Part shown: positions 1 through 46,476 of the stretch, in pieces
Layout: the number at the start of each line of letters is the position of its first letter
How positions within the stretch are numbered: the first letter of the stretch is position 1
IMG/VR virus record: IMGVR_UViG_3300043690_000038
Location: 1 to 46,476 of that record
DNA from: a virus
Taxonomy: Duplodnaviria; Caudoviricetes
Direction: 5' to 3' (one strand)
DNA length: 46,476 bases
Made by a program: the position numbers and the translations under genes
The notes under the pieces: generated by a model
The model's input: the letters and a program-made list of their open reading frames with translations, nothing else
The model's database searches: none
What the model was told of the DNA's origin: nothing

Positions 1-1
1 C

Positions 2-397
2 GGCGGCGGTGGAGGCCAAGGCAGGGACCAGACAGCGCCGTCCGCCGCTGGCGGATTGTATGGGGGAGGCGGGGGTGGCGGAGCTAGGAATGAACTGGCT
101 GGGCCAGGGCAGGGACTGCCCGCGGCTGGAGCGCCTGGCTGCATTGTAATTACATATGGGGGCTCCGGCTCCGGTCCCGGTCCCGGCCCCACGCCCGAAG
201 GCTATTGTCCGCCGATCCAGCCGCAGCCTCCGCCTGGCCTGCGCGAGGCGACCTATCGCCAACGCTTCCTCGGCCAGTCGTTTGACCCCACCATCATCAT
301 CATGAAGGACCGCCCGGGGCCGCTCAGGATCGTCGAGTTCGAGGCTTGGGTGAACGACGGCCCCGAGGTTCCGGAGCGGGGCGTTGAACGCGGCTAA
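2..397 (+). CDS. C-terminal part of the glycine-rich tail adhesin (continues the ORF starting at 45736); ends with nozzle-like C-terminal tag LREATYR...DP...KDRPGPLRIVEF
   Basis: Frame open from position 2 (GGGGGQGRDQTAPSAAGGLYGGGGGGG...GAPGCIVITY), the typical end of a Gly-rich domain, then a Pro linker and the tag shared with 43938..45734. Confidence 0.85.
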   Translation, partial: GGGGGQGRDQTAPSAAGGLYGGGGGGGARNELAGPGQGLPAAGAPGCIVITYGGSGSGPGPGPTPEGYCPPIQPQPPPGLREATYRQRFLGQSFDPTIIIMKDRPGPLRIVEFEAWVNDGPEVPERGVERG

Positions 398-416: not shown

Positions 417-998
417 ATGGCTGTTGCTCCCGTTTTAGGCTTGGCGTCGACCGCGATGAGCGCGGCTGGCTCGATCATGGGCGGCGAGGGCCAGGCGAAG
501 GCTGACGAGTTCCAGGCCCAGCAGTTGGAAAACGCCGCTCAGTACGGGCGCACCCAGGCGGCCCAGGTCGGCTACAACATGACGACCAACATGACCCGGA
601 TGCTCGGGCATATCGCGGCGGTGAGGGCGTCGCTCGGCTCGGACGTGCGGAGCCCGTCGACCTGGGCGGTCATGGGCAACCAGGAGGCGCAGGCCGAGCG
701 CGAGCGGGCGATAAGGATGGGCTCGATCTTCGCCCAGGTGCGGCAGGATCAGATGGGGGCGCAGCAATATACCGACATGGCGTCGCGCGCCCTGCAGGGC
801 GGTTACCTCGGCGCGCTCGGCGACGTCGCCAAGGGACTCGGCGGGGCGTTCTCGTCCATGGGCTCGAGCTTCAACTTCTTCGGCGGCGCGTCCGGCGGCG
901 GCGGCGTGCAGGCCCCATCGGCGACAGTCTTGCCGGTAAGCGGCAGCTACATCGTCAACCAGGATCCGCTGACCGGGCGGGGCCTGGGGCCGGTTTGA
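417..998 (+). CDS. Small internal virion/ejection protein (T7 gp14-like position and composition)
   Basis: 193 aa, Ala/Gly/Gln/Met-rich, hydrophobic N-terminus (LGLASTAMSAAGSIMGG) then helical QAQQLE..AA region; first of three genes after the tail genes. Confidence 0.7.
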   Translation: MAVAPVLGLASTAMSAAGSIMGGEGQAKADEFQAQQLENAAQYGRTQAAQVGYNMTTNMTRMLGHIAAVRASLGSDVRSPSTWAVMGNQEAQAERERAIRMGSIFAQVRQDQMGAQQYTDMASRALQGGYLGALGDVAKGLGGAFSSMGSSFNFFGGASGGGGVQAPSATVLPVSGSYIVNQDPLTGRGLGPV

Positions 999-4675: not shown

Positions 4676-7600
4676 TTGCCGACCTTCACCGAAGGGCAGG
4701 ATCCGCTTGACTCGACCTATGGCCATTCGATCAACCTGAACTTGCCGCAAGCTCCTCCTCCGCCGGCTCCGCTGCCGTGGGAATTGCCGCAGGCGATCGC
4801 CGAGGAGACCACCGACCTCCCTGCGATCGGGCGCTTTCTCAACCGGACTGTCGCCAAGCCGGTCGCCGATGCGCTCGGGCTTTCCGAGACGCTGGGCTTG
4901 AACCAGGCGGCGCGCGGCGCGCTGCAGGCCTCGCCGTCCGATCAGCCAGTCGACGGCTATAACCCGGTTCCCCGGATCGTCGGCACCAAATACGAACCGT
5001 ACCTGTCTCAGTTCATGGGCGACGTGAACCCGGACCAGACCGCGGCCCGGATGGCGCAGATCGATATTCACCAGCAGAACCAGCAAACAATGGCGCAGGG
5101 CGGCTGGACCGGGACGGCGCTCGGGCTGGTCGCGCAAGCGGCGGAACCCTGGTATTGGTTCATCCCCGGCGGTGAGGCGGTCGCGGCCTCCCGGCTTGGC
5201 GTTGCGGCGAGTGCGCTCGAGCGCATGGGTCCAGTTGCAAGGGGAGCGCTGACTGCAGGCGAGGTCGCCGCCGCCACCGTGCCGCAGCAAGCCATCCTGC
5301 AGAACGTCAACCCGACCCATAGCTTCCAGGAGAGCGCTTGGAATGTCGCCAGCAACGCGCTCCTCGCCGGCATCATCGGCACAGGCGCGCAGTTCCTCTC
5401 GCCGCTGGAGAAGGCGAGAGCGGGCAATGCGCTCGAGGCCTCGCGGCGTGACTTCCAGGCCCCGCCGACCGCGCCGGAACCGCACGGGACCGACCTGAGT
5501 CCACCGGCGGCGCCGCCCCTTGGCCCGGAGCCGCAGCCGGCCGCCGGTCAGTTCCTATCGCCGGCCTCGCTCTCTGCCGCCACCACCGACCGTCGCACCA
5601 TGGAGCTCGAGCCGTGGCATGCGTTCGGATTGCGCAACCTGGTCGGCACGTTCGGATCCGACGCGCAGCGGCTTTATGACGCTGCGACCACCAAGGCGGG
5701 CTGGCTTTCGCCGATCTCCCGCATCTTTTCACGCGGCTCGCTGCCGGCCAGGCAGTACGCGGGCGACATTGCCGACACCGCGCTCCACTTCACCCAGGAG
5801 CGCGAGGGGATCACCCCAGCGCAGGGCGGCCTCGCGCTCGAGGCGCAGCGCGATCAAGCAGTCACCCACTACAGCATGCTCAACAACGGCGTGCTCGAGC
5901 ATTACTTCGCCGACTATCGCAACCTGCCCGAGAACCCGTTCACCCGCGGCCGCGCCTATATCGAGGATATCCGCGGCCAGGCGCAGGGCCGCATGAACTT
6001 CAGCCAGTTCAAGAGCGAAGTTTATTCGGCCATGGTCGACGGCGACACGCACGCCGTCCCGCAGGTCGAGGCGGCGGCGAAGGCGCTGCGCGCCCAGGTG
6101 ATGGATCCAGTCAAGGGCTACCTCTCGAGCGTCAAGGACATGAACGGCCAGGCGCTGATGGGCGACGTGATCGAGCCGCCGAAGGGCGACAAGAGCTTCG
6201 CCCCGCGCTTCTGGTCGAAGGAGGCGATCGGCCGCGACCCGAACCGCTTCGACTCGATCGTCTCGAACTGGCTTTCGAAGCAGCAGGCGAACAAGGCCTC
6301 GATCCAGACCAGGCTGCGCGGACTCAACGATCAACTCAGTTGGCTCAACGACCGCAACAAATGGCTCAACGCCAGGATCGAGGGCAGAAGGACGGCTCTC
6401 GAAGCCGCTACCAACCGCTCGGAAGAAATCTCGCGGATGAACCAGTTCGCCTATCGGCGGTCGGCTCAGTTGTCGCAGCCGCTCGACGATCTGAGGCAGA
6501 AGGTTCGCGGCATCCAGGCGACGGTGCAGCCGCACCTCGACAAGCTTGAGCAATTGGCGAAGGACATCAAAGCGGAGCGCGCCGGCCTCCCTGGCGTCAC
6601 AGGCGCGGATACCGCGCTGTGGCGGCTGATCGGAGCGAACCAACGACTGAAGGACGCCGGCGACATCGTCTCGACCCTCGAGGGGGCGCACGAATACCAG
6701 GACGAGGTTCAGCGAGTTATCGGCGGCTTCAAAGAGGGGATCAGGGGAGCGCGTGAGCAAGCGGTCGGGGCGAGGAACCAACCCGAGGCGGCAACGCTGG
6801 CGGCGCTCGAGAAGAGCCGCGCCGACATCCGGAAAGAGATCGCGCCTTATATCAAAGAGCTCAACAAGGCGCGCAAAGATATAGGCCGCATCGAAGGTCA
6901 GCGAGTTCCTGGCGCCCGCGGCGGCGCCGTATTCGAGACCGAGATCCGCAATCGCGGCAACGTTCTTGCCGACCGGATGGCAGGCAAGCGCGATCAACTG
7001 AACCACTTCACCGAGGAGCTCGGCCGGCGCAACGCCGAGCTCGCCGACGTGCGCAAGGCGGTGGAAGAGGAAGTGACGAAGTGGGAGGGCAACACCTCCG
7101 CTGAAGCCAAGGCCGCGCTGAAGATCCGCGAAAAATACGAAGCCGAAAGGGCCGCCAAGGTTCTCGCCGGAACCTTCAAAGGCGCGGATCCGACCGCGAG
7201 GCTAACCTCGGCCGACGCGGCGATCGACAAGACGGTGCGCGCGATCCTCGAGGCCCCAACCGATCTCTCGGCCGAAGAAATCATGTCGCGAGCGCGCGAA
7301 ATTCGCCACCGCATCGACACCGATCCGGACGGGCGTCTGCCCTATGACGAGCCGAAGGCGGACCCGCATGGCGGATGGGCGAGTTCGTCCGATGACTTGC
7401 GCGGCTCGCTCAACCGCCGAGCCTTCGCCATTCCGACCAAGGACGTGCTCGACTTCGTCCATACCGATCTCGAGCATGTCATCCCGGCCTATCTCAAGAA
7501 CGTCGTTCCGGACGCCATGCATATCGAGCGGTTCGGCGACTTGAGGGCGACCATTCCGCAGAAGCGGATCAACGAATTTTACGACGCCCAGATCGCCAAG

Positions 7601-9218: not shown

Positions 9219-10901
9219 ATGGCCGCCCCTCCGCCTGTCCCGCCGATCCTCGACGCCGACCGCTACATCAGCTACGCGCCGACCTCGTCGACCTCGGTGT
9301 TCGCCGTGCCGTTCCCAGTGTTCGGCACTGGCGCAGACATCGCCGTCTACTATAACGGCGTCGTCACCGCCGCCTGGACCTTCTCGTCGGCCTCGGGCGC
9401 TACTCTCTCGACCATCGCGCTGCCGATCACCGACGGCCAGATCACCCTCACGACCGCGATAAGTTCGGGAACGCTCGAGATCTTCGGCGACTGGCGGCCG
9501 CGCCAAGGCGCGCTCAACACTAGCCCATCGATCGGCCGGCGCGAGTACCAGCAGGACATCGGCCAGATCGTCGCTTCGCTGCGCGAGGCGTGGACGGCGT
9601 TCCTGAACACCTTCCCGCTCTCCAAAGGATCGCGGGCCAACAAGTTCCTCGCCTTCGACGCGAGCGGCAACCCGGTCGCCTCGAGCTCGGTGACGGCCGG
9701 CTCGATCACCGTCTCGGGGCCGATGACGCCGGTGATCGCCGCCTCGAGCTACCCCGCGGCCTTGAGCCTGATGGGGTTCTCGACCTGGTTCCAGGGGCTG
9801 ATCGGGACGACCTCGAGCTCGGCCTTCTGGACGGCGATCAGCGGCTCGAGCTTCGGCGCGAGCCTCGCGTCGGCGGCCAACGCCGCCGCGGCGCTGACGC
9901 TGCTCGGCGTCTCCTCCTTCATGCAGACGATGCTGGCCGCAGCCACCTCTGCGGCGGCGATGACCGCGCTCGGATTGACGACATTTGGCCAGAGCCTGGT
10001 CACCGCCGCCAACGCCGCGGCTGCGTTGACGACCCTGGGTTTCTCCTCCCTTGCCCAGAGCCTGGCGACGCAGCCGACCGGCGGCCAGATGCTGAACCTG
10101 CTCGGCTACGGCGCGGCGCGGCGTCAGACGGTGGTCGGCGGCCCATTTATCCCGGCGACGGGACAGCCCGGCTTCCTGCCCGCCACGTCCGGGTCGCTCA
10201 GTCTGACTTCGATCGGGAGCTCGCCGCTGATCGTCTCGGCGGCGAACGGCGCAGCCTCGGGCGGAGCCAACGACCTTATCGGCAGCGGCACGGCTCTAAC
10301 CTGGTCGAGCCTTGCGCCTTCGACCACCAACTATCTCTACGTGACGGTCAACGCCGCTGGCGGCCTGACCCCGGGCTCGACCACGCTCCCGCCGGCTTAT
10401 CAATTCGGCGGCACGCCCTCGAATGCGCTCGGCCAGTTCACCTTCCTGATCGGCCCGATGACCGGCTACATGGGCAACGGCTCGGCGGCGCCGCAGGCCA
10501 ATGTGGTGTTCGTCGGCGAAGCGGTGACCTCGGGGACCGGCGTCACGAGCACGGTCGCCTACCAGTACAACGGCTGCTTCGTCGGCGTTCCGATCGCGGT
10601 GCCGGCGACCTCGACCCAAACCAACCTCACCCACAACCTGGGCGTCCCGCCGATCGGCTACCACAAGCAGGCCAAGCTCATCTGCGTCACCACCGACAAG
10701 GGCTATCCGGTCGGGGCGGAGATCGACTGGGACCTGGTCGGGCAGTCCGGCGGCACTATTGCCGCCATCGACAACCACAACGTCTCGCTCTCGATGGAGA
10801 ACTCGATCACGTTCACCGTCGCGCCATTCGCCGGCGGCACCCCGGGCGCGCTCACCAACGCCAACTGGAATGTCCGGCTCTCTGCGTGGAGGAGCTTCTA
10901 A
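9219..10901 (+). CDS. Tail fibre protein with T7 gp17-like N-terminal attachment domain
   Basis: N-terminal RYISY..TSSTSVFAVPFPVF...DIAVYYNG; six ~22-aa S.F...L..AA.AAAALT.LG shaft repeats; beta-rich C-terminal domain. Confidence 0.75.
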   Translation: MAAPPPVPPILDADRYISYAPTSSTSVFAVPFPVFGTGADIAVYYNGVVTAAWTFSSASGATLSTIALPITDGQITLTTAISSGTLEIFGDWRPRQGALNTSPSIGRREYQQDIGQIVASLREAWTAFLNTFPLSKGSRANKFLAFDASGNPVASSSVTAGSITVSGPMTPVIAASSYPAALSLMGFSTWFQGLIGTTSSSAFWTAISGSSFGASLASAANAAAALTLLGVSSFMQTMLAAATSAAAMTALGLTTFGQSLVTAANAAAALTTLGFSSLAQSLATQPTGGQMLNLLGYGAARRQTVVGGPFIPATGQPGFLPATSGSLSLTSIGSSPLIVSAANGAASGGANDLIGSGTALTWSSLAPSTTNYLYVTVNAAGGLTPGSTTLPPAYQFGGTPSNALGQFTFLIGPMTGYMGNGSAAPQANVVFVGEAVTSGTGVTSTVAYQYNGCFVGVPIAVPATSTQTNLTHNLGVPPIGYHKQAKLICVTTDKGYPVGAEIDWDLVGQSGGTIAAIDNHNVSLSMENSITFTVAPFAGGTPGALTNANWNVRLSAWRSF

Positions 10902-11122
10902 TGATCGGCGCCCTCATCTCCCTCATCATCTACATCATCATCCTGGCCGTGCTCTGGTGGCTGGTGAACTATGTGCTCGACAATTTCCCGCTGCCCGAGC
11001 CGGCTGCGCGCATCATCCGGGTTGCGGTCACCATCATCCTGGTCCTGATCGCGATCTATATCCTGCTCGGCGTGTTCGGCATCGCCGGAGTCGAAGGGCC
11101 GCCAAGGCTTAGAGGGCTGTGA
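10901..11122 (+). CDS. Two-TM small membrane protein, putative holin
   Basis: 73 aa from ATG overlapping fibre stop (TAATG); two hydrophobic helices split by FPLPEP; upstream of endolysin. Confidence 0.65.
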   Translation: MIGALISLIIYIIILAVLWWLVNYVLDNFPLPEPAARIIRVAVTIILVLIAIYILLGVFGIAGVEGPPRLRGL

Positions 11123-11337
11123 TCATTGTCGCGGTCGCGCTGGTCACGCTATCGGGTCCGGACGGCCAGCGGATCGACGTCAACCCGGCGACGGTGGTGA
11201 GCGTGCGTGAGCCGCGCGAGTCGGCCTCCGATCACTTCGCCTCGTCGGTCAAGTGCATCCTGCAGACGGTTGACGGCAAACTGATCGCAGTCACCACCGA
11301 CTGCGCGACCGTCCGGCAGCGGCTTGGAGGCAAGTGA
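11119..11337 (+). CDS. Small protein resembling FlbD-like fold, in lysis cassette
   Basis: 72 aa, L.GPDG..I.VNP..V.SV......DGK.I.V pattern; translationally coupled on both sides. Confidence 0.55.
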   Translation: MIIVAVALVTLSGPDGQRIDVNPATVVSVREPRESASDHFASSVKCILQTVDGKLIAVTTDCATVRQRLGGK

Positions 11338-11792
11338 TGGAGCTCTCGGACGCCGGGGTCGCCGTGTTAAGGGACCGTGAGGGCTGCAAGCTCACCGCCT
11401 ACCAGGACTCGGTTGGCGTCTGGACGATCGGCGTCGGGCACACTGCGGCTGCGGGGGAGCCTATCCCGGCGCCCGGCATGACGATCACGCAAGAGGAGGC
11501 GGACGCGATCTTCGACGAGGACCTCGACGCCTACGAGGCGACGGTCAACGAGGTTGTCACCGCCGAGATGGCGCAGAACGAGTATGACGCCTTCGTCTCG
11601 ATCTGCTTCAACATCGGCCAGGGCGGGTTCGCCGAGAGCACCTTCGTCGCGCGGTTCAACGCCGGCGACAAGGAAGGATGCGCCAGGGCGATCCTATGGT
11701 GGGATACGCCGCCGGAAATTATCTCCCGGCGGCAGGGGGAACAGGTGCAGTTCCTCGGCGGCTACGTGCCGCGGATCAAGGCGATCGAGTAG
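11337..11792 (+). CDS. Endolysin, GH24 phage lysozyme
   Basis: Catalytic E-x8-D-x5-T motif REGCKLTAYQDSVGVWTIGVGHT; FNIG; C-terminal RR..E...F. Confidence 0.95.
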   Translation: MELSDAGVAVLRDREGCKLTAYQDSVGVWTIGVGHTAAAGEPIPAPGMTITQEEADAIFDEDLDAYEATVNEVVTAEMAQNEYDAFVSICFNIGQGGFAESTFVARFNAGDKEGCARAILWWDTPPEIISRRQGEQVQFLGGYVPRIKAIE

Positions 11793-11794
11793 GC

Positions 11795-12325
11795 CTACTG
11801 CGGCGTGGTCGCGTCCGTTGCAGGCGGCGCCACAACCACCGGCCCGACGCCGGGATAGTTCACCACGATATAAGGCGGCACGGCGATCGGCTGCACCGGC
11901 CAACCCGCCGAGCCCGCGGGCGGCGGCACTGGCGTAGTCGGGTCGCCGGGGTTGGGCGGCGTCGGCGGCTGCAGACCGGGCGGCACGTTGGGCGGAATGA
12001 TCGGCCCGCCCCAGATGCCCGGAGGCATGCCTTCGCCGGGCGGGTTGAAGCCGGGCGGCCCCCAGATCGGATGGACCGGCGTGCCGGGAGGCTTCGGGCT
12101 CGGGGTCGCCCACGGCGGCGAGTAGCCGGGGTCAACCGGCGGCCGCGCCCACGGCGGGCTGTAACCCGGATCGACCGGACCTTGCGGCGGGATGATCGGC
12201 CCGCCGCCGACTCCGAGGTCGGTCAACCAAGCTTCGCCGACAAAGGTCGCGGGGATCGGCTGATCGGCTGCGCTTCGACCCTTCGGATAGAGAACGCCGT
12301 TCAAGGTGATCGATGCTGATGCCAT
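11795..12325 (-). CDS. Proline-rich low-complexity protein
   Basis: 176 aa, AGGAG RBS, PVDPGYSPPWA x2, IWG(G/P)P and GGPIIPP repeats; convergent with the lysis genes. Confidence 0.75.
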   Translation of the reverse strand: MASASITLNGVLYPKGRSAADQPIPATFVGEAWLTDLGVGGGPIIPPQGPVDPGYSPPWARPPVDPGYSPPWATPSPKPPGTPVHPIWGPPGFNPPGEGMPPGIWGGPIIPPNVPPGLQPPTPPNPGDPTTPVPPPAGSAGWPVQPIAVPPYIVVNYPGVGPVVVAPPATDATTPQ

Positions 12326-12358
12326 GGGGGAGGGTCTCCTGGAGGGATGGACCCCGCC

Positions 12359-12391
12359 ATAGCACCCAGATGTTGCGGTTTCTCAACGCCC
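12359..12391 (-). promoter_or_regulatory. Putative late-type promoter (GGGCGTTG...TGCTAT) for the Pro-rich gene
   Basis: Minus-strand GGGCGTTG at 12391-12384, 19 nt, TGCTAT. Confidence 0.55.
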
Positions 12392-12412
12392 CAACCTACC
12401 GCCTCTGGGGGG

Positions 12413-12434
12413 TTTCATTGCTATTTCATTGCTA
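12413..12434 (+). repeat. Tandem 11-bp repeat TTTCATTGCTA x2, putative integrase arm-type sites
   Basis: Exact tandem copy; near-identical pair on the other side of the att core. Confidence 0.75.
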
Positions 12435-12464
12435 AAACCGGGGCCGTCTGTAGGAAGTATGGGC

Positions 12465-12477
12465 TAAGTTATTGATA
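12465..12477 (-). promoter_or_regulatory. IHF-binding consensus in attP
   Basis: Minus strand TATCAATAACTTA matches WATCAANNNNTTR, between arm sites and core. Confidence 0.65.
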
Positions 12478-12480
12478 TTG

Positions 12481-12528
12481 TGGTGGGCGGTACAGGGCTC
12501 GAACCTGTGACCCTCTCGGTGTAAACGA
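12481..12528 (-). other. attP core: 3' half of tRNA-Val(TAC)
   Basis: Minus strand TCGTTTACACCGAGAGGGTCACAGGTTCGAGCCCTGTACCGCCCACCA = anticodon loop (TAC), T-arm, acceptor 3' strand and CCA; 5' half absent; lies downstream of integrase. Confidence 0.9.
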
Positions 12529-12627
12529 TGGTCCAGACAACCCTCGCACTGAACTTATTGCGTTTTTTTGTCATTGAGTGCGCCTGTGAGACAACTTTGT
12601 GCTCGTTTGTTCCGCTCGCCCATCCCA

Positions 12628-18757: not shown

Positions 18758-18888
18758 TCGAGCAGGATGAGCGGTTCCAGCAGAGCGAGTTCCGCTCGCT
18801 GCTTCTCTTGAACGACGTGCCGCATGCGGTGGCGACCGGCCGCGACGAGCCGATCGAATGGCTCAAGCGCTGGGGGGCGGTGCGGTGA
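18754..18888 (+). CDS. 44-aa ORF resembling a VRR-NUC C-terminus (remnant)
   Basis: MIEQDERFQQSEFRSLLLLNDVPHAVATGRDEPIEWLKRWGAVR aligns with Q..F......PHAV..G.D.....LK.WGA.R of the preceding gene; coupled both sides. Confidence 0.5.
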   Translation: MIEQDERFQQSEFRSLLLLNDVPHAVATGRDEPIEWLKRWGAVR

Positions 18889-19964
18889 ACGACGACGTCG
18901 CCGCCTACGACGCGCGCATCAATGCGCTGCGAAAGCAGATCGAGGCGGAGACCGACACGCGCAAGCTGGTTGGCCTCGTCGCTGCCGCCGACACCATTGA
19001 AGAGATGATGGCGAACGCCGGCTATCGCGAAAACACTGAGGCGATGCGTCCGGCCAACGAGGCGCGCTTCCTGGCGCGCTGGAAGCTCGGACGCGAACTG
19101 GCGAAGGTGGAGCGTGGGCACGGTCCCGGGCGCGGCAAAAAAGATGTCCCGAGCCGGGACACGTTTTTCCGCGCCTACCTCAAGGACCTCGGCCTCAATA
19201 AGAACCGCGCCAACGAATGCGAGCGCATCGGCGCTATACCTGACAACAAGCTGCCGAACGCTTTTGCGGAGGCCGCCAAGAGGGGCAGGCTCAACACGAT
19301 CAAGGACATGTTCAGCTTCGCCCGGCCATTCTGGAAGATTTCCGCGCGCAAGAAGAAGCACAAAGCGATTCATGCCGCCGCCGTTGCCGCCGCGACGGCT
19401 GCAGCGAAATTCGGCCCCTTCGCGCTCATCTATGCCGACCCGCCAACAAGCTTTGCTACCTATACCGAAGGAAGCTACCGCGGCCCGAACCAGCATTATC
19501 CGACGCTGTCATGGGAAGAGATTGAGAACTTCGCCATCGACGGCAAGCGCATCAGCGAGATCGCCCACGACGACGCCATGCTCTTTTTATGGTTGACGTC
19601 CTCCAACGTCCCGTTTGCGCTCAGGGTCATGGATGCGTGGGGCTTCCAGTTCAAGGCCAGCGCCGCGTGGGACAAAGGCGTTCCGGGGACGGGCCTCATC
19701 TTTCGCAACTATCATGAACTCCTGTTCTATGGCGCGCGCGGCAAGCCGCCGGGGCCGGTTTATCTCCCGCCTTCCCTGTTTCGCTATCCGCGGCGCGAGC
19801 ACAGCGCCAAGCCGCCGGAGATTCGCGGCGAGATCGAGCGCATGTACCCGGATTATGACGCCTCAACGCGATTGGAGCTCTTCTCCCGCGAGAACGCCAC
19901 AAGCGCGCCCGGGTGGACGCATGCCGGCCTCGAGGCCAACAAGACAATGATCGCAGCGGAGTGA
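18885..19964 (+). CDS. MT-A70 family N6-adenine methyltransferase with N-terminal helical domain
   Basis: IYADPPT, HYPTL..EEI, DA.LFLW, WGF, W.K, HE.L..G.RG, HS.KP, LELF.R motifs. Confidence 0.9.
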   Translation: MNDDVAAYDARINALRKQIEAETDTRKLVGLVAAADTIEEMMANAGYRENTEAMRPANEARFLARWKLGRELAKVERGHGPGRGKKDVPSRDTFFRAYLKDLGLNKNRANECERIGAIPDNKLPNAFAEAAKRGRLNTIKDMFSFARPFWKISARKKKHKAIHAAAVAAATAAAKFGPFALIYADPPTSFATYTEGSYRGPNQHYPTLSWEEIENFAIDGKRISEIAHDDAMLFLWLTSSNVPFALRVMDAWGFQFKASAAWDKGVPGTGLIFRNYHELLFYGARGKPPGPVYLPPSLFRYPRREHSAKPPEIRGEIERMYPDYDASTRLELFSRENATSAPGWTHAGLEANKTMIAAE

Positions 19965-36453: not shown

Positions 36454-36632
36454 TGGCGACCAAGCCCAGACCGCCATCTCCGCCGCCCCGGCCTCAGCCG
36501 CCGCCGCCCCCCGCTCCGCCGCCGCATCCGGAGGAGGACGATCCCGCCGCCCGCGCCCCGCGCCACTATCGGCTCGAGGCTGAGACCGGCCGCCTAGGCG
36601 CCGAGATGGGGCAGCATGGCGGCGTACAATAA
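36453..36632 (+). CDS. Small Pro-rich protein ending in YRLEAETGRL
   Basis: TGATG-coupled; overlaps next gene. Confidence 0.55.
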   Translation: MATKPRPPSPPPRPQPPPPPAPPPHPEEDDPAARAPRHYRLEAETGRLGAEMGQHGGVQ

Positions 36633-37053
36633 GTTCAACCTGTTCACCCAGGACCTGTGCCGCGGGAGCCATAACCTTCAGTCGGGCGGCCACACGTTCA
36701 ACGTGATGCTGACCAACACCGCGCCGGTCGCCGCCAACCATCTCTACAGCGACGTTTCCGGAACCGAGCTCGCCAACGGCGGCGGCTATACCACCGGCGG
36801 CCTCGCCTCAGCGATGTCCGACACATCGGCGTCCGGGACCGAGAAGGTGCTGGCGACCAACGTCACCTGGACCGGCTCCGGCGCCGGCACCGGGCCGTTC
36901 CGCTACGTCGTCATCTATAACGCCACCCAGACGACGCCGTTAAAGCCGCTCGTCTGCTGGTTCGACTATGGAAGCTCGATCCCCGGCCTCAATCCCGGCG
37001 ACACGTTCGCGGTGACCTTCGACGCCACCAACGGCCTGTTCCAGTTGACGTGA
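36616..37053 (+). CDS. Virion structural protein (145 aa beta-sandwich, fibre/appendage subunit)
   Basis: YNKF..F...L..G.HNL....F..MLTN.AP; EL.NG.GYT.GG; WT..G...GPFRY.V.YN; L....DYGS..L..G.TF.V.F. Confidence 0.8.
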   Translation: MAAYNKFNLFTQDLCRGSHNLQSGGHTFNVMLTNTAPVAANHLYSDVSGTELANGGGYTTGGLASAMSDTSASGTEKVLATNVTWTGSGAGTGPFRYVVIYNATQTTPLKPLVCWFDYGSSIPGLNPGDTFAVTFDATNGLFQLT

Positions 37054-40070: not shown

Positions 40071-41336
40071 ATGCTCGCCTCCGACATCTTCACCATCGTC
40101 TCGTCGGCCCTGATCCAGACCGGCAACCAGCCACCGACCGCGTCGTTTGACGGCACCGACGAATGGGTCGCCGGGCAGAACGCCTACGAGCTCTGGCTTC
40201 CGTATTGCCTCGAGGCCTATGACTGGACCTTCCAGCGCACGCAGGGCCAGTTGACCCGCATTGGCGGGTCCTCATACCCCGGCTTCTCCGACACCTACCA
40301 GTACCCGCCCGGTTGCCTGCACCTGATCTCGGTCATGCGCGCCGATGTCACTGCCCCGGTCGGCGATCCGTGGGGCCAGCCGACTCAGGCCGGCCTCTAT
40401 CCGCTGCAGTACAAGATCATCCGCAACTCGATCGCCACCAACGCCCCGAACGGCCTTGCGGCGGAATGGATAACCGACGTCAGCGGTTCCGACCAGTATT
40501 CCGCCACCTTTACCGCGGCGCTGATCGGCTTCGTCGCCTCCTCGCTCTACGCCTCGCTCAATGAAGACCTGGTCTCGGCTGAGACGACCTACAAGATGGC
40601 CGAGGCGATGCTTGGCAAGGCGGCTGGCCGGGTCAAGGAGCAGCAGAGCCGTAGAACCCCGCTCATGGCCTCGCCGCTCTCGGGCGACGCCTTCACCACT
40701 ATCTCCTCCGCCTTGATCCAGGTTGGGGCGCAGCCCCCGGCCACGGCATGGGACGGAACCGACGACTGGATCGACGGCTGGAACGCCTATTCGATCTGGT
40801 TGCCCTATTGCCTCGAGGCGAGGGACTGGAATTTCCAGACCGCAGTGCTTCCCCTAGTCCGGGTCGGCGACGCCACTTATCCGCGGTTCTCCGACGCCTA
40901 CGCCATGCCGCCCGACTGCCTGCACCTGCAGACGGTCTGGCGCCCCGACCTCGCCGGCCAGATGCCAGGCTACATGGGCTGGGGCATGACCGAGGGCAGT
41001 ATAAGGCCGCCGCAGATCGAATACCGGATCATCGGCGGGGTGATCGAGACTTCCGCCCCGTTCGGCTTGACCGCCAAGTATCTCACCGTCCCGGCCGGGG
41101 CCGACGCCTATTCCGCCACCTTCAACCTGGCGCTCTCAGCCTTTGTCGCCTCGTCCCTCTATGCCTCGCGCAACAAGGACGGCAAGAGCGCGGAAGCGAT
41201 GAAGGCGCACGCCATGCAGCTTTTGGAAGAGGCCGCGTCACGCACCGACGCGCAGGAGAACCGCCGGGTGGCGTTCCGCTCGCGGATGCTCGAACGCCGG
41301 CGGGCGCGCTATGCGCCGTGGGGCTCGCCGCTCTGA
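40071..41336 (+). CDS. Tail adaptor (tail tubular protein A, T7 gp11-like), tandem two-domain fusion
   Basis: aa1-198 and aa199-421 each carry SSALIQ.G.QPP...DGTD.W..G.NAY..WLPYCLEA.DW.FQ...Y..PP.CLHL..V...YSATF..AL..FVASSLYAS. Confidence 0.85.
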   Translation: MLASDIFTIVSSALIQTGNQPPTASFDGTDEWVAGQNAYELWLPYCLEAYDWTFQRTQGQLTRIGGSSYPGFSDTYQYPPGCLHLISVMRADVTAPVGDPWGQPTQAGLYPLQYKIIRNSIATNAPNGLAAEWITDVSGSDQYSATFTAALIGFVASSLYASLNEDLVSAETTYKMAEAMLGKAAGRVKEQQSRRTPLMASPLSGDAFTTISSALIQVGAQPPATAWDGTDDWIDGWNAYSIWLPYCLEARDWNFQTAVLPLVRVGDATYPRFSDAYAMPPDCLHLQTVWRPDLAGQMPGYMGWGMTEGSIRPPQIEYRIIGGVIETSAPFGLTAKYLTVPAGADAYSATFNLALSAFVASSLYASRNKDGKSAEAMKAHAMQLLEEAASRTDAQENRRVAFRSRMLERRRARYAPWGSPL

Positions 41337-43921
41337 TGGCCGCGCGCCTGCCTGACATCGTCCAGACCGACTTCGGCGGCGGCCAGATCAATTTCGCCCT
41401 CAAGCGGCGGGACAACCTCGAGTTCGTCAAGACCGGCGCGCGGCAGATGCAGAACTGGCGCATCGAGGCCGGCGGCACCCTGCTCAACCGGCCGGGCAAA
41501 CGGCCGATCTTCCGCTGTAACGGCCCGCGCAGCGAATACGTCCGCATGGGAGTTGGGGCCGAGTTCATCCTGAATTTCGGGGAGGCCTCGACCGGCGAAG
41601 CGATGATCACCATCTCGTCGCTCGACGGAACCCAGTTCGTTTCGAATGTTGGCCCTTATCTCTGGACCAACGCCAATGTCCAGATGATCTCCTGGTGCGT
41701 GGCGCTGTTCGACATCGTCATCTGCTTTCCGAACATGCAGCCGCAGATTTGCCGGTGGTCGCCGTCCGCCTTCACCTGGACCTTCCTGCCCTACTCGTTC
41801 CGGGTCATCAACGACCAGTCGCAAGAGCCGTTCTACCGGTTCAGCGTGCCCGGCGCGACGATGTCTTATTCCACCACCACCGGCTCGGTCACGCTCACCT
41901 GCAGCGTTCCCTATTTCACCACGAGCATGATCGGCACGCTGCTCTCGATCGTCGGCTGCCAGTGTACGATCACGCGAGTGATCGATCCGCAGCATGCGAT
42001 CGTCCAGGTCGCCTATCGCCTGCCGGACTGCGTGGTGTTGAGCATCACCGACAACCGGCCGTTCCAGCCCGGCATGATCGTCGAGCTCCGCGACCAGGAT
42101 CTCAAGTTCGAGGTCTCCCAGGTCGGGGTCGAGATGACCCAGACTTCCGGCCTCGGCACGCTCAACACCATCCTCGGCGTCATGCTGTCCGACCTCGTCG
42201 TCGACTTCTCTCAGTTCACCTATGATCCGGCGCACCCGGACGTGCTCGTCTCCGAGCTCGGCGCGTCGACCGTCTTCGGCTACCCGTTCAACTGGGTGCA
42301 GTGCGGGCAGCCGACGGTCGAGTGGACCGAGGAGTTCATGTGCGCGCAGCGCGGCTGGCCCGCGGCCTGCAGCTACACCGCCGGCAGGCTCTGCTTCTAC
42401 GGCTTCCCGCAGATGGAGGAGGCGATCCTGTGGAGCGCGATCGGGGCCGACGACGTCTGCTGGGTCGATCCGGTTGCCGCCACCCGCCAGCCGGAAGCCG
42501 GGGCCAATCCCGACAGCGCCATCCTCGAGTTCGAGAGCTCGCGGCCGAGGATCGTCAACGTGCTCGAATGGGGCGACGTATTCGTGTTCACCGATCGGGG
42601 CATCTTCTTTATCCCCGTGAGCCAGGCCAATCCGCTCTCGCCGGGCAATGTCGAGTTCCGCCGCTTTTCCAACGACGGCGTCTCGATCATCCGGCCGATC
42701 TCGACCCAGGACGCGATCGTCTACATCAACGCGGGCCGGAACCGCTGCTCGGTGGTGAGGGCGACCGGCTCGCTGACCCGGCCCTATATCTCTGACGACG
42801 TGTCGGAAAGCCACGCGCCGCTGTTCACCGCCCCGGCTTCGCTGGCCATCGCCACCGGCGACGGCCCCTATCCCGAGCGCTACGTCTACGTCACCAACTG
42901 CGACGGCTCGATCGTGGTCGGCAAGTTCACCCAGCAGCGCACCCTGATTGGCTGGGTGCCGTGGATCACCGGCTACCCCGGCTATAGCTACCCGAATGGG
43001 CTGGCCACCTGGGTCACCACTGCCGGGCCGATCGTCTACTTCACCTCGAACTACGGCAGCTTATTCGGCAACGCCTTTCTGCTCGAGCAGGAGGACCCGC
43101 TCGCCTATCTCGACGGCTACGTCATGATCAATCAGCCGGCGCCTGGCATGGCGCTGCCGCCGTTCGGCCCTTTGTGGCACCTCGCCGGCCTGACCGTGCA
43201 GGTGGTCGACGGGCAGGGCTATGGCCCCAGGCCCGACAACATCCCGAACGGCTGCGTCGACTGGGGCGACCGCCAGGTTGACGACACTGGCCATCTGATC
43301 CTCCTGCCGGAGGATGGCGTCTGGTCCGGAAGCCCGACCGTCTACGCCGGGATCTGGTCGCCGCCGATCTACGAACCGTTCATCTTCCCGCCGCAGGAGG
43401 GCCGGGCCACCCCGGGCGCGCGGGGGAAAAGACGCAAGCTGCAGCGCGCGGTGGTGAGCGTCGAGCACTCGAACGGCTTCACCTTCGGCAAGCGCACCAT
43501 CCCGCCCAACAACTGGCTCGAGGACCCGACCATCGCCACCGGCGACCCGCCGTGGCCGCTGCCGCCCAGGATCGAATGGCGGCGCGACTTCGCCGGCGCG
43601 ACCGGCCCCGATCCCAACTGGTATAATATCGCCTCCGCGCCAGGGCAGTCGCCGCCGGCGGTCTTTATCAATCCTCACCTGGCGTATGACGCGCCGCTCG
43701 TCGGCTCAACCATAGAGGTCCGGCTCGGCAGTTGGAGCAACGCGCCGACTGCCTTCACCTTTCAATGGCAGCGCAATGGGGTGAACATATCAGGCGCCAC
43801 GGCGCCAAGTTATGTAGCCCGGCCGGGCGATGTCGGCGCGGCGATCTCCTGCGCTGTCACCGCCACGAATGCGGCCGGTAGCTCCACCGCGAGCTCGAAC
43901 GTGGTGGTGATCCAGCCATGA
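41336..43921 (+). CDS. Tail nozzle (tail tubular protein B, T7 gp12-like) with C-terminal Ig-like domain
   Basis: 861 aa from TGATG start; QTDF.GG.I...RRD, NW.I...G.L..RPG, RGWP......RL, WSAIG, VFTD.G; ends G.WSN.PT.F.FQWQRNG..I.GAT..SY....D.G..ISC.VTATN..GS. Confidence 0.88.
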   Translation: MAARLPDIVQTDFGGGQINFALKRRDNLEFVKTGARQMQNWRIEAGGTLLNRPGKRPIFRCNGPRSEYVRMGVGAEFILNFGEASTGEAMITISSLDGTQFVSNVGPYLWTNANVQMISWCVALFDIVICFPNMQPQICRWSPSAFTWTFLPYSFRVINDQSQEPFYRFSVPGATMSYSTTTGSVTLTCSVPYFTTSMIGTLLSIVGCQCTITRVIDPQHAIVQVAYRLPDCVVLSITDNRPFQPGMIVELRDQDLKFEVSQVGVEMTQTSGLGTLNTILGVMLSDLVVDFSQFTYDPAHPDVLVSELGASTVFGYPFNWVQCGQPTVEWTEEFMCAQRGWPAACSYTAGRLCFYGFPQMEEAILWSAIGADDVCWVDPVAATRQPEAGANPDSAILEFESSRPRIVNVLEWGDVFVFTDRGIFFIPVSQANPLSPGNVEFRRFSNDGVSIIRPISTQDAIVYINAGRNRCSVVRATGSLTRPYISDDVSESHAPLFTAPASLAIATGDGPYPERYVYVTNCDGSIVVGKFTQQRTLIGWVPWITGYPGYSYPNGLATWVTTAGPIVYFTSNYGSLFGNAFLLEQEDPLAYLDGYVMINQPAPGMALPPFGPLWHLAGLTVQVVDGQGYGPRPDNIPNGCVDWGDRQVDDTGHLILLPEDGVWSGSPTVYAGIWSPPIYEPFIFPPQEGRATPGARGKRRKLQRAVVSVEHSNGFTFGKRTIPPNNWLEDPTIATGDPPWPLPPRIEWRRDFAGATGPDPNWYNIASAPGQSPPAVFINPHLAYDAPLVGSTIEVRLGSWSNAPTAFTFQWQRNGVNISGATAPSYVARPGDVGAAISCAVTATNAAGSSTASSNVVVIQP

Positions 43922-43937
43922 GGACCTGAGAAGGCTC

Positions 43938-45734
43938 ATGGCGACCTGGAACCCCACCGACTGCAACCCGAACGTCAAGCTGTCGGGCGGCAATCTCGTC
44001 GCGACCGGAGGGCTGGCGAACCGGGTCGGTTGCGCCATCGATCTGACGAACAAGCTGGTCTGGTTCTACTCCTCCAGCACTTGCCGCTGGAACGGGTCGA
44101 ACACGGCCAATCCGGCGACTGCGACCGGCGGCATCAGCTTCACGAATACTGGTCCGTATTTCCCGATGTTCTCGGCGGATGGCTGCACAGTCACGGCGGC
44201 GTTCGCAGCGGCGTCGATGTTCTGGGCGATCCCGAGCGGGTTCTCCGCGTGGGACACGCTCGCGGGCAGCGCGACGACGTGGAACCCGGCCGACAAGAAC
44301 GCTTCGGTCACGCTTTCGAACGGCAACCTGACCGCTGCATCGCCATCAGGCTCTTACATAGCCGCCCGCGCCACCAACTCCCTGTCGAGCGGCAAAGCCT
44401 ACTTCGAGTGGAACTGGGACGCGATCACCAATTACTCGGTGGTCGGGGTCGGCAACTCGACCGCGTCGCTCAGCAACTATGTCGGCTCGTCGTCGGCGTC
44501 GATGGGCGGGCATGACAACGGCACCGTCTACGGCGCGGTCGGCGGCTCCTACGACGCAACCAACCTGACGAGCAGTTCGGCCTACTTCACCACCGTTCGC
44601 GGCACGCAGGGATATTCGACCGGCAAACATTATTTCGAGGTCACCCTCACCGCCAACGACGGGACGGGAAACCCCCATGTCGGCGTCTGCACCAGCGCGG
44701 CGTCGCTGGGCAACTATGCCGCGGTGACGAATGGGGTCGATGCGGTCATCGACACCGGCGGCTGCTATGCCAACGGCGGCCTGACCGCCGCGGTGTTCGA
44801 CGCGATCTCGACCGGCGGAACGGTGGGGATCGCCGTCGACTTCGGCAACAGTAAATTCTGGGTGTGGTCGAGCGCGACCTCAAGGTGGAACGCTGCGGCC
44901 ATCGGATCGCAGAACCCGGCGACCAATACGGGCGGCCTTAGCTATACTTACTCGGGCACATTTTATCCGGCGTGCTCGCCACGCTCTCACGCCAGCACCC
45001 AGGTTCTCACCGCCAATTTCGGCGCATCGGCGTTCGTCGGCGCAGTTCCGGCAGGGTTCGCGCCATGGAACGGCGCAGCCTACTCGCTCGCCGCCGTCCA
45101 GGGCGTCTATGGGCTGACCGGCTATGCGGCGAGCCTCGGCGCAAGCCATGCCTACTCGCTCGCCGCCGTCTCTGGCGCCTATGGGCTGACCGGTTACGCC
45201 GCGGCGTTAGGCGACCGGAGAGCCTACTCGCTCGCCGCGGTCCAAGGCTCATACACCCTCAACGTTGGCGGCTCGTCGCTCTACGGCATGGGCCTTTACG
45301 GGATGGGGCCTTACAGCGGCGCGTCCGGCGGCGCCGCGCTCACCTACACGCCCTCTCCGAACAAGGTCATTGCCGCGGCCGCGGGCGCTTATGCGCTGAC
45401 CGGTCACGCGCCGACGCTCGGCTATGTCCGCGGTCCGCTGACGCTCGTTGCTTCGACCGGCTTCTACAGCCTCGCTGGTTCAGGCGTGGCGTTGGCCAAG
45501 GGCGGGGCCGCGTCCGGCCTTTCAGTCCCGCCCGGCCAATACCGGCTCACTGGCGGGACAGCGACGATGACCTTGACCCTCGCGATCAATGTGCCGCCGC
45601 CGTCGATGCCGCCCCATCTGCGCGAGGCGACTTACCGCGCCCGGCAATTGGGCTATTCGTTCGACCCGAGCTTCACCATCGTGAAGGACCGGCCGGGGCC
45701 GATCCGGATCGTTGAATTTGACGGCTGGCTTTGA
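43938..45734 (+). CDS. Tail appendage protein: two SPRY/concanavalin-like domains, six ~24-aa repeats, nozzle-like C-terminal tag
   Basis: TWNP.D...LS.GNL, R.T...S.GK.YFE, VG.A.D....W...NPAT.TGG each twice; YSLAAV.G.Y.LTG repeats; LREATYR...KDRPGPIRIVEF end. Confidence 0.85.
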   Translation: MATWNPTDCNPNVKLSGGNLVATGGLANRVGCAIDLTNKLVWFYSSSTCRWNGSNTANPATATGGISFTNTGPYFPMFSADGCTVTAAFAAASMFWAIPSGFSAWDTLAGSATTWNPADKNASVTLSNGNLTAASPSGSYIAARATNSLSSGKAYFEWNWDAITNYSVVGVGNSTASLSNYVGSSSASMGGHDNGTVYGAVGGSYDATNLTSSSAYFTTVRGTQGYSTGKHYFEVTLTANDGTGNPHVGVCTSAASLGNYAAVTNGVDAVIDTGGCYANGGLTAAVFDAISTGGTVGIAVDFGNSKFWVWSSATSRWNAAAIGSQNPATNTGGLSYTYSGTFYPACSPRSHASTQVLTANFGASAFVGAVPAGFAPWNGAAYSLAAVQGVYGLTGYAASLGASHAYSLAAVSGAYGLTGYAAALGDRRAYSLAAVQGSYTLNVGGSSLYGMGLYGMGPYSGASGGAALTYTPSPNKVIAAAAGAYALTGHAPTLGYVRGPLTLVASTGFYSLAGSGVALAKGGAASGLSVPPGQYRLTGGTATMTLTLAINVPPPSMPPHLREATYRARQLGYSFDPSFTIVKDRPGPIRIVEFDGWL

Positions 45735-45735
45735 G

Positions 45736-46476
45736 ATGACGACGACAATTCTTCTCACCAGCTCGGGAACCTGGACCGTCCCGGCGGACTGGAACAATAG
45801 CGATAATAAGATTGAGTGTGTCGGCGGTGGCGGGGCCGGAAATTATGCGCCAGCGGCGAACTCTGGCGGCGGCGGTGGCGGCGGCGGATATAGTGTTGCG
45901 ACGAATGTGACGCTGACGCCGGGGGCCGTGATCCCGGTGCAGATCGGGCAGGGTGGGACAGTCCCGCCCTCGACTGGAGATCCGGTTGGTGGCCCAGGGA
46001 CCGCCACAATATTCAACACGGCGACCAATTTGGTTGTGGCTGGAGGAGCTACGTCGGCGACGACTAACGCGCTCGGCGGCACAGGAGGGACTGGGACGAA
46101 TGCCGGGGGAAATGGGGGAGATGGCGGATATGCGGGAATTTGGACCTGTGGCGGATCGGGCGGCGGTGGCGCTGGAGGGCCGCATGGGCCAGGGAACAAG
46201 GGGGGAGTCGGGTCATCGTACATTGGCGGCGGCGGCGGCGGCGGCGGCGGTGGTGGAGCGGACGGCGGCGCAATCGGCTCGGACGGGGATGCGTCCGATC
46301 TGGTTGGGGGCAGGGGCGGGACCGCGCATGACGGGACACTTGGGGGAGCGGGCGGGACACTAGCCGTGCCCAATGGCGCGGCTGGCGCGAATGGGAGCGG
46401 GGGCGGCGGCGGCTGCGGGACGGCTGGAGGCGGCGGCCTGGGAGGGGCGGGGAATGCTTGGGGGGCGGTTGGACCG
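45736..46476 (+). CDS. Glycine-rich tail adhesin, N-terminal part (runs off window end, continues at position 2)
   Basis: Open for 247 codons: MTTTILLTSSGTWTVPADWNNSDNKIECVGGGGAG...GGGGGGGGYS....LTPG..I..QIGQGG; polyglycine-II adhesin-type domain; absent from ORF track because no stop. Confidence 0.88.
   Translation, partial: MTTTILLTSSGTWTVPADWNNSDNKIECVGGGGAGNYAPAANSGGGGGGGGYSVATNVTLTPGAVIPVQIGQGGTVPPSTGDPVGGPGTATIFNTATNLVVAGGATSATTNALGGTGGTGTNAGGNGGDGGYAGIWTCGGSGGGGAGGPHGPGNKGGVGSSYIGGGGGGGGGGGADGGAIGSDGDASDLVGGRGGTAHDGTLGGAGGTLAVPNGAAGANGSGGGGGCGTAGGGGLGGAGNAWGAVGP

Follow-up and report, generated by a model that had tools for sequence, protein, structure and literature searches.

Podophage tail nozzles (tail tubular protein B) built from more than one polypeptide have been described before. 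In Pseudomonas phage A1002, cryo-EM has shown that the nozzle-base gp42 is completed by the nozzle-rope gp39 through β-strand complementation; the rope binds dimers of a Gp80-like fibre (PMC13730344). In phiRIO-1, tail tubular protein B consists of two polypeptides, gp44 and gp40, and in VpV262 its C-terminus is replaced by unrelated sequence, with a homologous piece, gp52, found two genes downstream (PMC4819975). A split nozzle with strand complementation is thus already known from these accounts (PMC13730344, PMC4819975). In T7 gp12 the nozzle platform is a nine-strand barrel that combines C-terminal strands with three N-terminal ones and contacts the adaptor; T7-type fibres dock between the adaptor and the fibre-dock of the nozzle, and do not supply core strands (PMC6702177). 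The nozzles of T7, Carin-1 (8ck1) and LME-1 (9efk) have the fold of the protein studied here, with a platform formed by strands from both termini, but each is a single chain.

The window, the whole stretch of 46,476 nucleotides analysed here, is an entire IMG/VR record from a temperate podophage, with genes for a terminase, portal, major head protein, adaptor, nozzle and internal virion proteins as well as integrase and repressor-like genes. Its nozzle gene has lost the last ~40 codons, and this piece (the tag) now ends two downstream genes (the carriers). The products of these genes are predicted to fill the platform barrel and likely share the six slots of the hexamer, an account that we consider, as a whole, probable. 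The locus resembles A1002 in that the nozzle is spread over two genes, the C-terminal part closes a longer protein with an N-terminal extension, and the intervening genes are structural (PMC13730344); completion of the platform by strands, as in A1002, is here a prediction. In A1002, however, a single carrier contributes ~150 residues, which make up two partial propeller blades and most of the platform (PMC13730344), whereas here the piece has ~40 residues, or three strands, the genome has two carriers, and the clade as a whole shows at least six types of cargo. With a donated piece a quarter of the size, two carriers and varied cargos, this nozzle would work like the A1002 split nozzle without being of that type, and no sequence match of this nozzle to the A1002 group was found in the phage collection. 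The phiRIO-1 and VpV262 proteins share the splitting of tail tubular B, but each has one displaced piece, and the passages that describe them mention neither duplication nor fusion to cargo (PMC4819975). New here are a minimal tag reused on many cargos and two carriers for what would be six common slots; searches of an open-access library turned up no account of a nozzle tag that is duplicated or has its cargos exchanged. Coordinates are collected in Table 1.

Table 1. Features of the split-nozzle region and related genes (window coordinates).
Feature	Position	Strand	Basis or content
145-aa protein	36616..37053	+	phrog_644; Atlas nearest named cluster Gp80, score 0.87, family on 23% of members
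Adaptor / tail tubular A, tandem duplication (2 x ~200 aa, 50% identical)	40071..41336	+	phrog_394 in 2 stretches; self-comparison
Nozzle / tail tubular protein B, 861 aa	41336..43921	+	phrog_376, E 1.7e-26
Pro-rich cis extension, nozzle residues 733-765	43532..43630	+	Alignment; kept in 6/9 tagless nozzles
C-terminal Ig-like domain of nozzle	43697..43918	+	Several PHROG matches at residues ~788-861; 9c2d_S, E 4e-8
Carrier 1, 598 aa	43938..45734	+	SPRY domain(s), six beta-type repeats (residues ~380-546), Pro linker, tag
Tag 1	45618..45731	+	59.8 bits against profile of 34 intact nozzle C-termini
Carrier 2, 5' part, Gly-rich protein (379 aa in total)	45736..46476	+	L001:12401-13540
Carrier 2, 3' part	1..397	+	Pro linker, tag, 14 extra residues
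Tag 2	239..352	+	64.6-67.1 bits against the same profile; synteny
Internal virion protein gene	417..998	+	phrog_418

The nozzle gene lies between the adaptor and internal virion protein genes, with the two carrier genes intervening. Its family profile matches the solved nozzles 9efk_M (E 1.5e-23) and 8ck1_A (E 3.6e-21), and a monomer model (pLDDT 78.8, falling below 50 at residues 737-786 and 794-861) superposes on LME-1 9efk_M with Z 24.8 and rmsd 4.1 over 598 aligned residues, and on Carin-1 8ck1_A with Z 24.4 and rmsd 3.6 over 600. The best Foldseek and VIA matches of the model are podophage nozzles throughout, with the propeller and platform fold. The match to intact homologs ends at residue 732 (~43531), and as judged by the alignments the conserved C-terminal ~40 residues are absent from the nozzle in cis.

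A search with the nozzle gave 52 proteins: nine close ones including the window's own (the other eight at 64%–70% identity), 38 at 27%–46%, and five that match the Ig-like domain only. The C-terminal motif that the first-pass annotation had given for tail tubular B homologs does end 34 of these 38 proteins (P0010-P0047); the other four, which look truncated or frameshifted, were left out of the profile, built from the last 44 residues of the 34 intact homologs (matching part ~38-44 residues). None of the nine close nozzles has a positive match to it, and these nine are here called tagless. Of 80 other loci, 69 carry the segment a single time, where the nozzle ORF ends, and nowhere else; of the remaining 11, seven run off the contig, three have diverged but intact ends, and one (L002) encodes a tagless nozzle with a real stop followed by another gene. 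This small gene (L002:5658-5861), inside which the contig ends, has no Pfam or PHROG match. In a tree of 37 nozzles computed on the shared part, the nine tagless ones form one clade (support 0.999) whose sister is the intact P0010, and going by these sequences the split is clade-wide. A scan of metagenomes gave one locus, L002, ending ~200 bases past the nozzle; scans of IMG/VR with close-clade or tag patterns returned this phage's own contig only, and a GTDB scan with the tag patterns gave two loci, both false. One of the fetched records, Microcystis phage Mwe-JY08 (PP395640.1), has an unannotated nozzle homolog at 5001-7145, with only a tRNA-Gly call over it.

Beyond the break the window's nozzle continues into a Pro-rich cis extension and an Ig-like domain. 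The extension is conserved in six of the nine tagless nozzles; the other three end in a different short tail of only 14-19 residues, and the Ig-like domain is found in one of the nine, the window's own. The possibility raised by the first-pass annotation that nozzle positions ~43577-43645 hold a decayed or still functional cis copy of the tag fails on comparison: a tag matrix gives 62-71 for the tags but -23 to -51 for the cis extensions (three tails were too short for this test), and the profile-profile probability of extension against tag is 0.2%. A profile of the extension finds tagless nozzles and none elsewhere among the sequences searched. By these comparisons the cis extension is not a tag copy.

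The two segments that were first seen as similar 38-residue stretches of the carriers match at 27 of their 38 residues and, as DNA, at 84 of 114 bases. Among the 38 codons compared, 16 are identical, 11 synonymous and 11 amino-acid-changing, giving dS 0.85, dN 0.21 and dN/dS 0.25. The conservation is at the protein level, as had been proposed, and these rates indicate purifying selection on both tags. As DNA they make up a 120-nt two-copy repeat family, 73% identical. The genome carries these two tags, the next best profile match reaching only 4 bits, and tag 1 is a homolog of the last three β-strands of the nozzle. Tag 2 sits where the 3' end of the ancestral nozzle gene would be, directly before the internal virion protein gene. 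When the tag is aligned to tail tubular B homologs, a comparison suggested in the first-pass annotation, it falls on the intact C-termini, and the nozzle family profile places the segment on the last residues of the solved LME-1 nozzle (9efk_M); the short C-terminal profile alone reached only E 1 against the solved nozzle. With tag 2 as query, there was no match at E 1 in 50,697 annotated phage records. The scores in Table 1, together with the missing match in the nine tagless nozzles, bear out the original suggestion that the nozzle is split, and identify the tag, at the level of sequence, as the nozzle's own C-terminal piece.

Gene order helps place the carriers. An internal virion protein gene directly follows the nozzle end in 66 of the 69 intact loci and follows tag 2 here, which puts the carriers inside the ancestral nozzle gene. 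In a tree on ~42 columns, 15 tags and the C-terminus of P0010 form one clade (0.989); this tree is weak, since it has so few columns and P0109, P0110 and P0026 are equally close by mean identity. We envisage that cargo genes were inserted once into the nozzle gene, at the loop before the last three strands, and that the cargo-tag unit was then duplicated and its cargos exchanged. Among 120 nozzles no intermediate with an in-frame cargo insertion at the break was found; one nozzle, P0112, has a ~70-residue insert ~15 residues upstream of the break position.

Docking was modelled with nozzle residues 1-775 (extension included, residues 776-861 left out) and tag 1, using our own alignments taken from intact homologs. 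The pair scored 0.83 against 0.00 for the best of three controls; of the solved pairs 116 out of 157 reach the score mark, and of the mismatched ones 2 out of 215, figures that are rough here, given our own alignments. Runs share at least 85% of their contacts, and the partner has a pLDDT of at least 63. Predicted contacts of tag 1 fall on nozzle residues 6-11, 48-51, 677-680 and 697-720, with tag residues 35-41 pairing with nozzle 48-50, 706-709 and 10, and tag residues 27-29 with 677-680, a pairing by which the tag would supply inner strands of the platform; nozzle residues 739-775 lie outside the predicted interface. These contacts match the barrel of N- and C-terminal strands that forms the T7 gp12 platform (PMC6702177). 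The prediction is thus that the tag inserts into the platform barrel as core strands, and the complex model proposed in the first-pass annotation favours strand donation in trans for tag 1. The score may draw on memory, given that the partners are halves of a split gene, that solved nozzles exist and that the alignments come from intact homologs.

Both carriers join their cargo to the tag by a Pro linker. They had been described as both ending in the tag, which holds for carrier 1; carrier 2 runs 14 residues further, and the other carriers have no such residues. Carrier 1 was also described as a double-SPRY protein. Its SPRY match (PF00622, 31.5 bits, cut-off 26.3) passes in one stretch only, while phrog_10080 matches in three, and by eye the region 43938-45077 reads as start piece, end half, start piece, middle, middle, end half; it looks as if two SPRY domains were intertwined. 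Carrier 2 scores 23.3 bits with PF21722, just below the cut-off of 24.3, and has a weak tail-fibre PHROG match. Carrier 1 ends in a Leu codon and a stop one base ahead of the start of carrier 2 (45729-45738). A +1 slip at this stop would fuse the two tagged proteins; no stimulator was spotted by eye.

The tag is not confined to this genome. A two-tag profile searched against 1.84 billion representatives gave 51 matches, 11 of which are further non-nozzle proteins that end in a Pro linker and tag; neither these nor this phage's carriers score on the tagless-nozzle profile. Two of the 51 are pieces of this phage's own genes, one of them a 39-aa fragment whose cluster contains carrier P0111, and nozzles or fragments of them, short pieces that are ambiguous and one spurious match account for the others. 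A second search, with a profile that included the new tags, gave 15 matches and added carrier P0108. This makes 13 further carriers (11 plus P0108 and P0111), whose N-terminal cargos belong to six or more unrelated groups: Gly-rich, SPRY with repeats, BNR propeller, P0054/P0061, P0058/P0063 and P0066. The first-pass annotation, which rightly saw two carriers here, had under-called this spread. Sixteen tag positions are invariant across 14 tags. The cargo domains were not found in loci L002-L081. An earlier single-tag word search among proteins of 208-664 aa gave three candidates, none of which scored; the search was too insensitive, as such carriers turned up later. One short protein, P0069 (124 aa, on a 1007-base contig), apparently joins the start of an internal virion protein to a nozzle C-terminus and may be an assembly chimera.

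Truncated nozzles and tag-bearing genes could be paired in part, indirectly, from longest-contig sizes and sources. Sizes and sources agree for P0003/P0054 (35379), P0002/P0060 (4260) and P0107/P0061 (8849), so that three of the eight other tagless clusters have a matching carrier and five do not; the co-occurrence that the first-pass annotation suggested surveying is thus indicated for a minority. No nozzle was found for carriers P0056 and P0057, from contigs of 40 and 34 kb. The SPRY carrier P0065 and the Gly-rich carrier P0108 share a longest-contig size of 3221, which suggests a second phage with a SPRY and Gly-rich pair, the only other phage for which two carriers are indicated. Gly-rich carriers occur four times (the window's own, P0056, P0108 and P0111).

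The record is classed as linear and 79% complete. The Gly-rich ORF had been read as crossing the window end; joining end to start directly puts it out of frame, but an IMG/VR contig (L001) identical to the window spans the junction with two more bases there. The genome is therefore circular at this point, the two bases are missing from the window, and the Gly-rich gene is one 379-aa ORF, as the first reading required. A Logan contig of one run (X1, which may be the source sample) also crosses the junction, with every letter the same. The virus was detected in five soil runs, of which two may be its source, no RNA run being listed, and contigs from all five cover the nozzle-carrier region, the long pieces without letter differences. 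These contigs, which drop rare variants, contain no credible joint from nozzle to tag; a candidate that links 10286 to 12530 in a single short contig of run X2 was set aside, one side having only 22 bases. The agreement of the five runs and the lack of a credible joint argue that the layout is not an assembly error.

Completion of the nozzle in trans by the tags is, in our judgment, very likely. The tag would slot into the platform barrel as its last three β-strands, anchoring the cargo to the tail. If the nozzle is a hexamer below the adaptor, as in T7 (PMC6702177), each of six subunits would need one tag, and if folding or assembly of the nozzle depends on it, at least one carrier would be essential. 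That both carriers sit in one ring is a view toward which we lean, as they come from adjacent genes one base apart. Pro linkers would keep the cargos pointing outward, where the SPRY, Gly-rich, BNR propeller and other modules could aid attachment to the host surface or act as docks for small fibres; that the cargos bind the host is, in our view, slightly more likely than not. The broader generalization is evenly poised: in this clade of soil podophages the last three strands of the nozzle would be a portable 40-residue mounting tag, several tagged genes per genome would compete for six slots, each virion would bear a tunable mixture of monomeric host-binding modules, and a gene would join the tail simply by gaining the tag.

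The split could be real and the ring still unmixed, if only one carrier completes the nozzle, with each virion homogeneous (two particle types) or the second carrier a spare duplicate or a poor binder. A single carrier serves all six subunits in A1002 (PMC13730344), tag 2 has its 14 additional residues, and most carriers have no second carrier of matching contig size. We nevertheless find this unlikely: purifying selection has acted on both tags at a dS of 0.85, the SPRY and Gly-rich pair is indicated in a second phage with Gly-rich carriers recurring, and we see no mechanism that would exclude one tag from the ring. Markedly less probable is that the tag works in trans while the cargo is removed by cleavage at the Pro linker or serves some end other than host binding, as a stabiliser, as a decoy, or by hiding the nozzle fold from Avs13-type sensors until assembly. 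Avs13 sensors do bind the nozzle core fold (PMC12803255), but the cargos are varied β-rich modules of kinds common on phage surfaces, and their turnover would fit host recognition; we rate this the least probable of the four alternatives.

A third alternative has the pieces joined past the DNA level by splicing, ribosomal bypass or frameshifting, yielding a nozzle with the tag in cis or a fusion of the carriers. The pieces do lie on one strand in ancestral order, a +1 slip at the carrier 1 stop would run in frame into carrier 2, and the end of carrier 1 resembles a shifty stop. Yet no group I or II intron family was found at E up to 1 in L001:7800-14200 (one miRNA match had E 0.65), the tagless nozzles have differing tails with independent stops, 15 proteins have a long cargo domain uninterrupted by stops with the tag following in the same frame, none of the contigs (which drop rare variants) connects nozzle and tag, and the split halves of phiRIO-1 run as separate polypeptides (PMC4819975), all of which leaves such joining very improbable. 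Hardly better placed, and if anything a little behind it, is completion of the platform in cis, by the extension at 733-765 or by an Ig strand, with the tags used elsewhere or mere remnants. The extension is kept in six of nine tagless nozzles, and in the monomer model the Ig strand 788-797 (pLDDT ~45) seems, with low confidence, to occupy the terminal slot, probably because one alignment (A2) placed the intact last strand on those columns. Against this, the extensions score negative on the tag matrix with almost no profile-profile similarity, the other eight tagless nozzles lack the Ig-like domain, the tag still docked in the model with the extension present, and the tags keep their invariant positions.

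Changes of host range in podophages usually come from the exchange of trimeric fibres that sit behind an N-terminal anchor. If completion in trans by two tagged proteins is correct, a C-terminal tag derived from the nozzle core would instead mount unrelated, probably monomeric modules, and with two tagged genes the six positions around the tail would no longer be uniform. The tag would also be a simple route for new surface domains into the virion. In chaperone-usher pili a donor strand from another subunit completes an incomplete β-sandwich; this is an analogy only, as the fold is unrelated, the donor is a single N-terminal strand and the product is a polymer. The docking peptide of Klebsiella phage RBP2 is closer in that a short conserved peptide mounts exchangeable receptor-binding proteins, but that peptide attaches to the branching domain of RBP1, adding a second site, and is no piece of a core tail protein (PMC13352976), while here two proteins would be rivals for a single type of site. 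Nozzle and tag would form a natural split-protein pair, easily tested in vitro, and they carry a warning that truncated nozzles in metagenomes need not be pseudogenes.

Several other features of the genome deserve mention. The tandem duplication in the adaptor is unique among 78 adaptor-like ORFs matched in the fetched loci. The usual adaptor is a dodecamer, and six two-domain chains could take its place here. The duplication is not tied to the nozzle split, as L002 is also tagless yet has a single adaptor. Homologs of the 145-aa protein occur in 54 phage records, among them phiCbK-like Caulobacter phages and Pam1_09; the protein does not match PF23140, and its single-sequence model is poor (pLDDT 38.5). 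Repeats like those of carrier 1 occur near the homolog in one of four phage loci (E 0.015), and an Atlas search with the repeat region of carrier 1 gave no usable match. As a lead only, this protein might be a candidate small fibre subunit, Gp80-like, that binds the carrier 1 repeats, and by analogy with A1002 carrier 1 may be in part a fibre-docking rope. Promoter and terminator scans gave signal at chance level. Two named relatives come from Hyphomicrobiales genomes, a weak hint as to the host. An MT-A70-family methyltransferase gene lies at 18858-19964.
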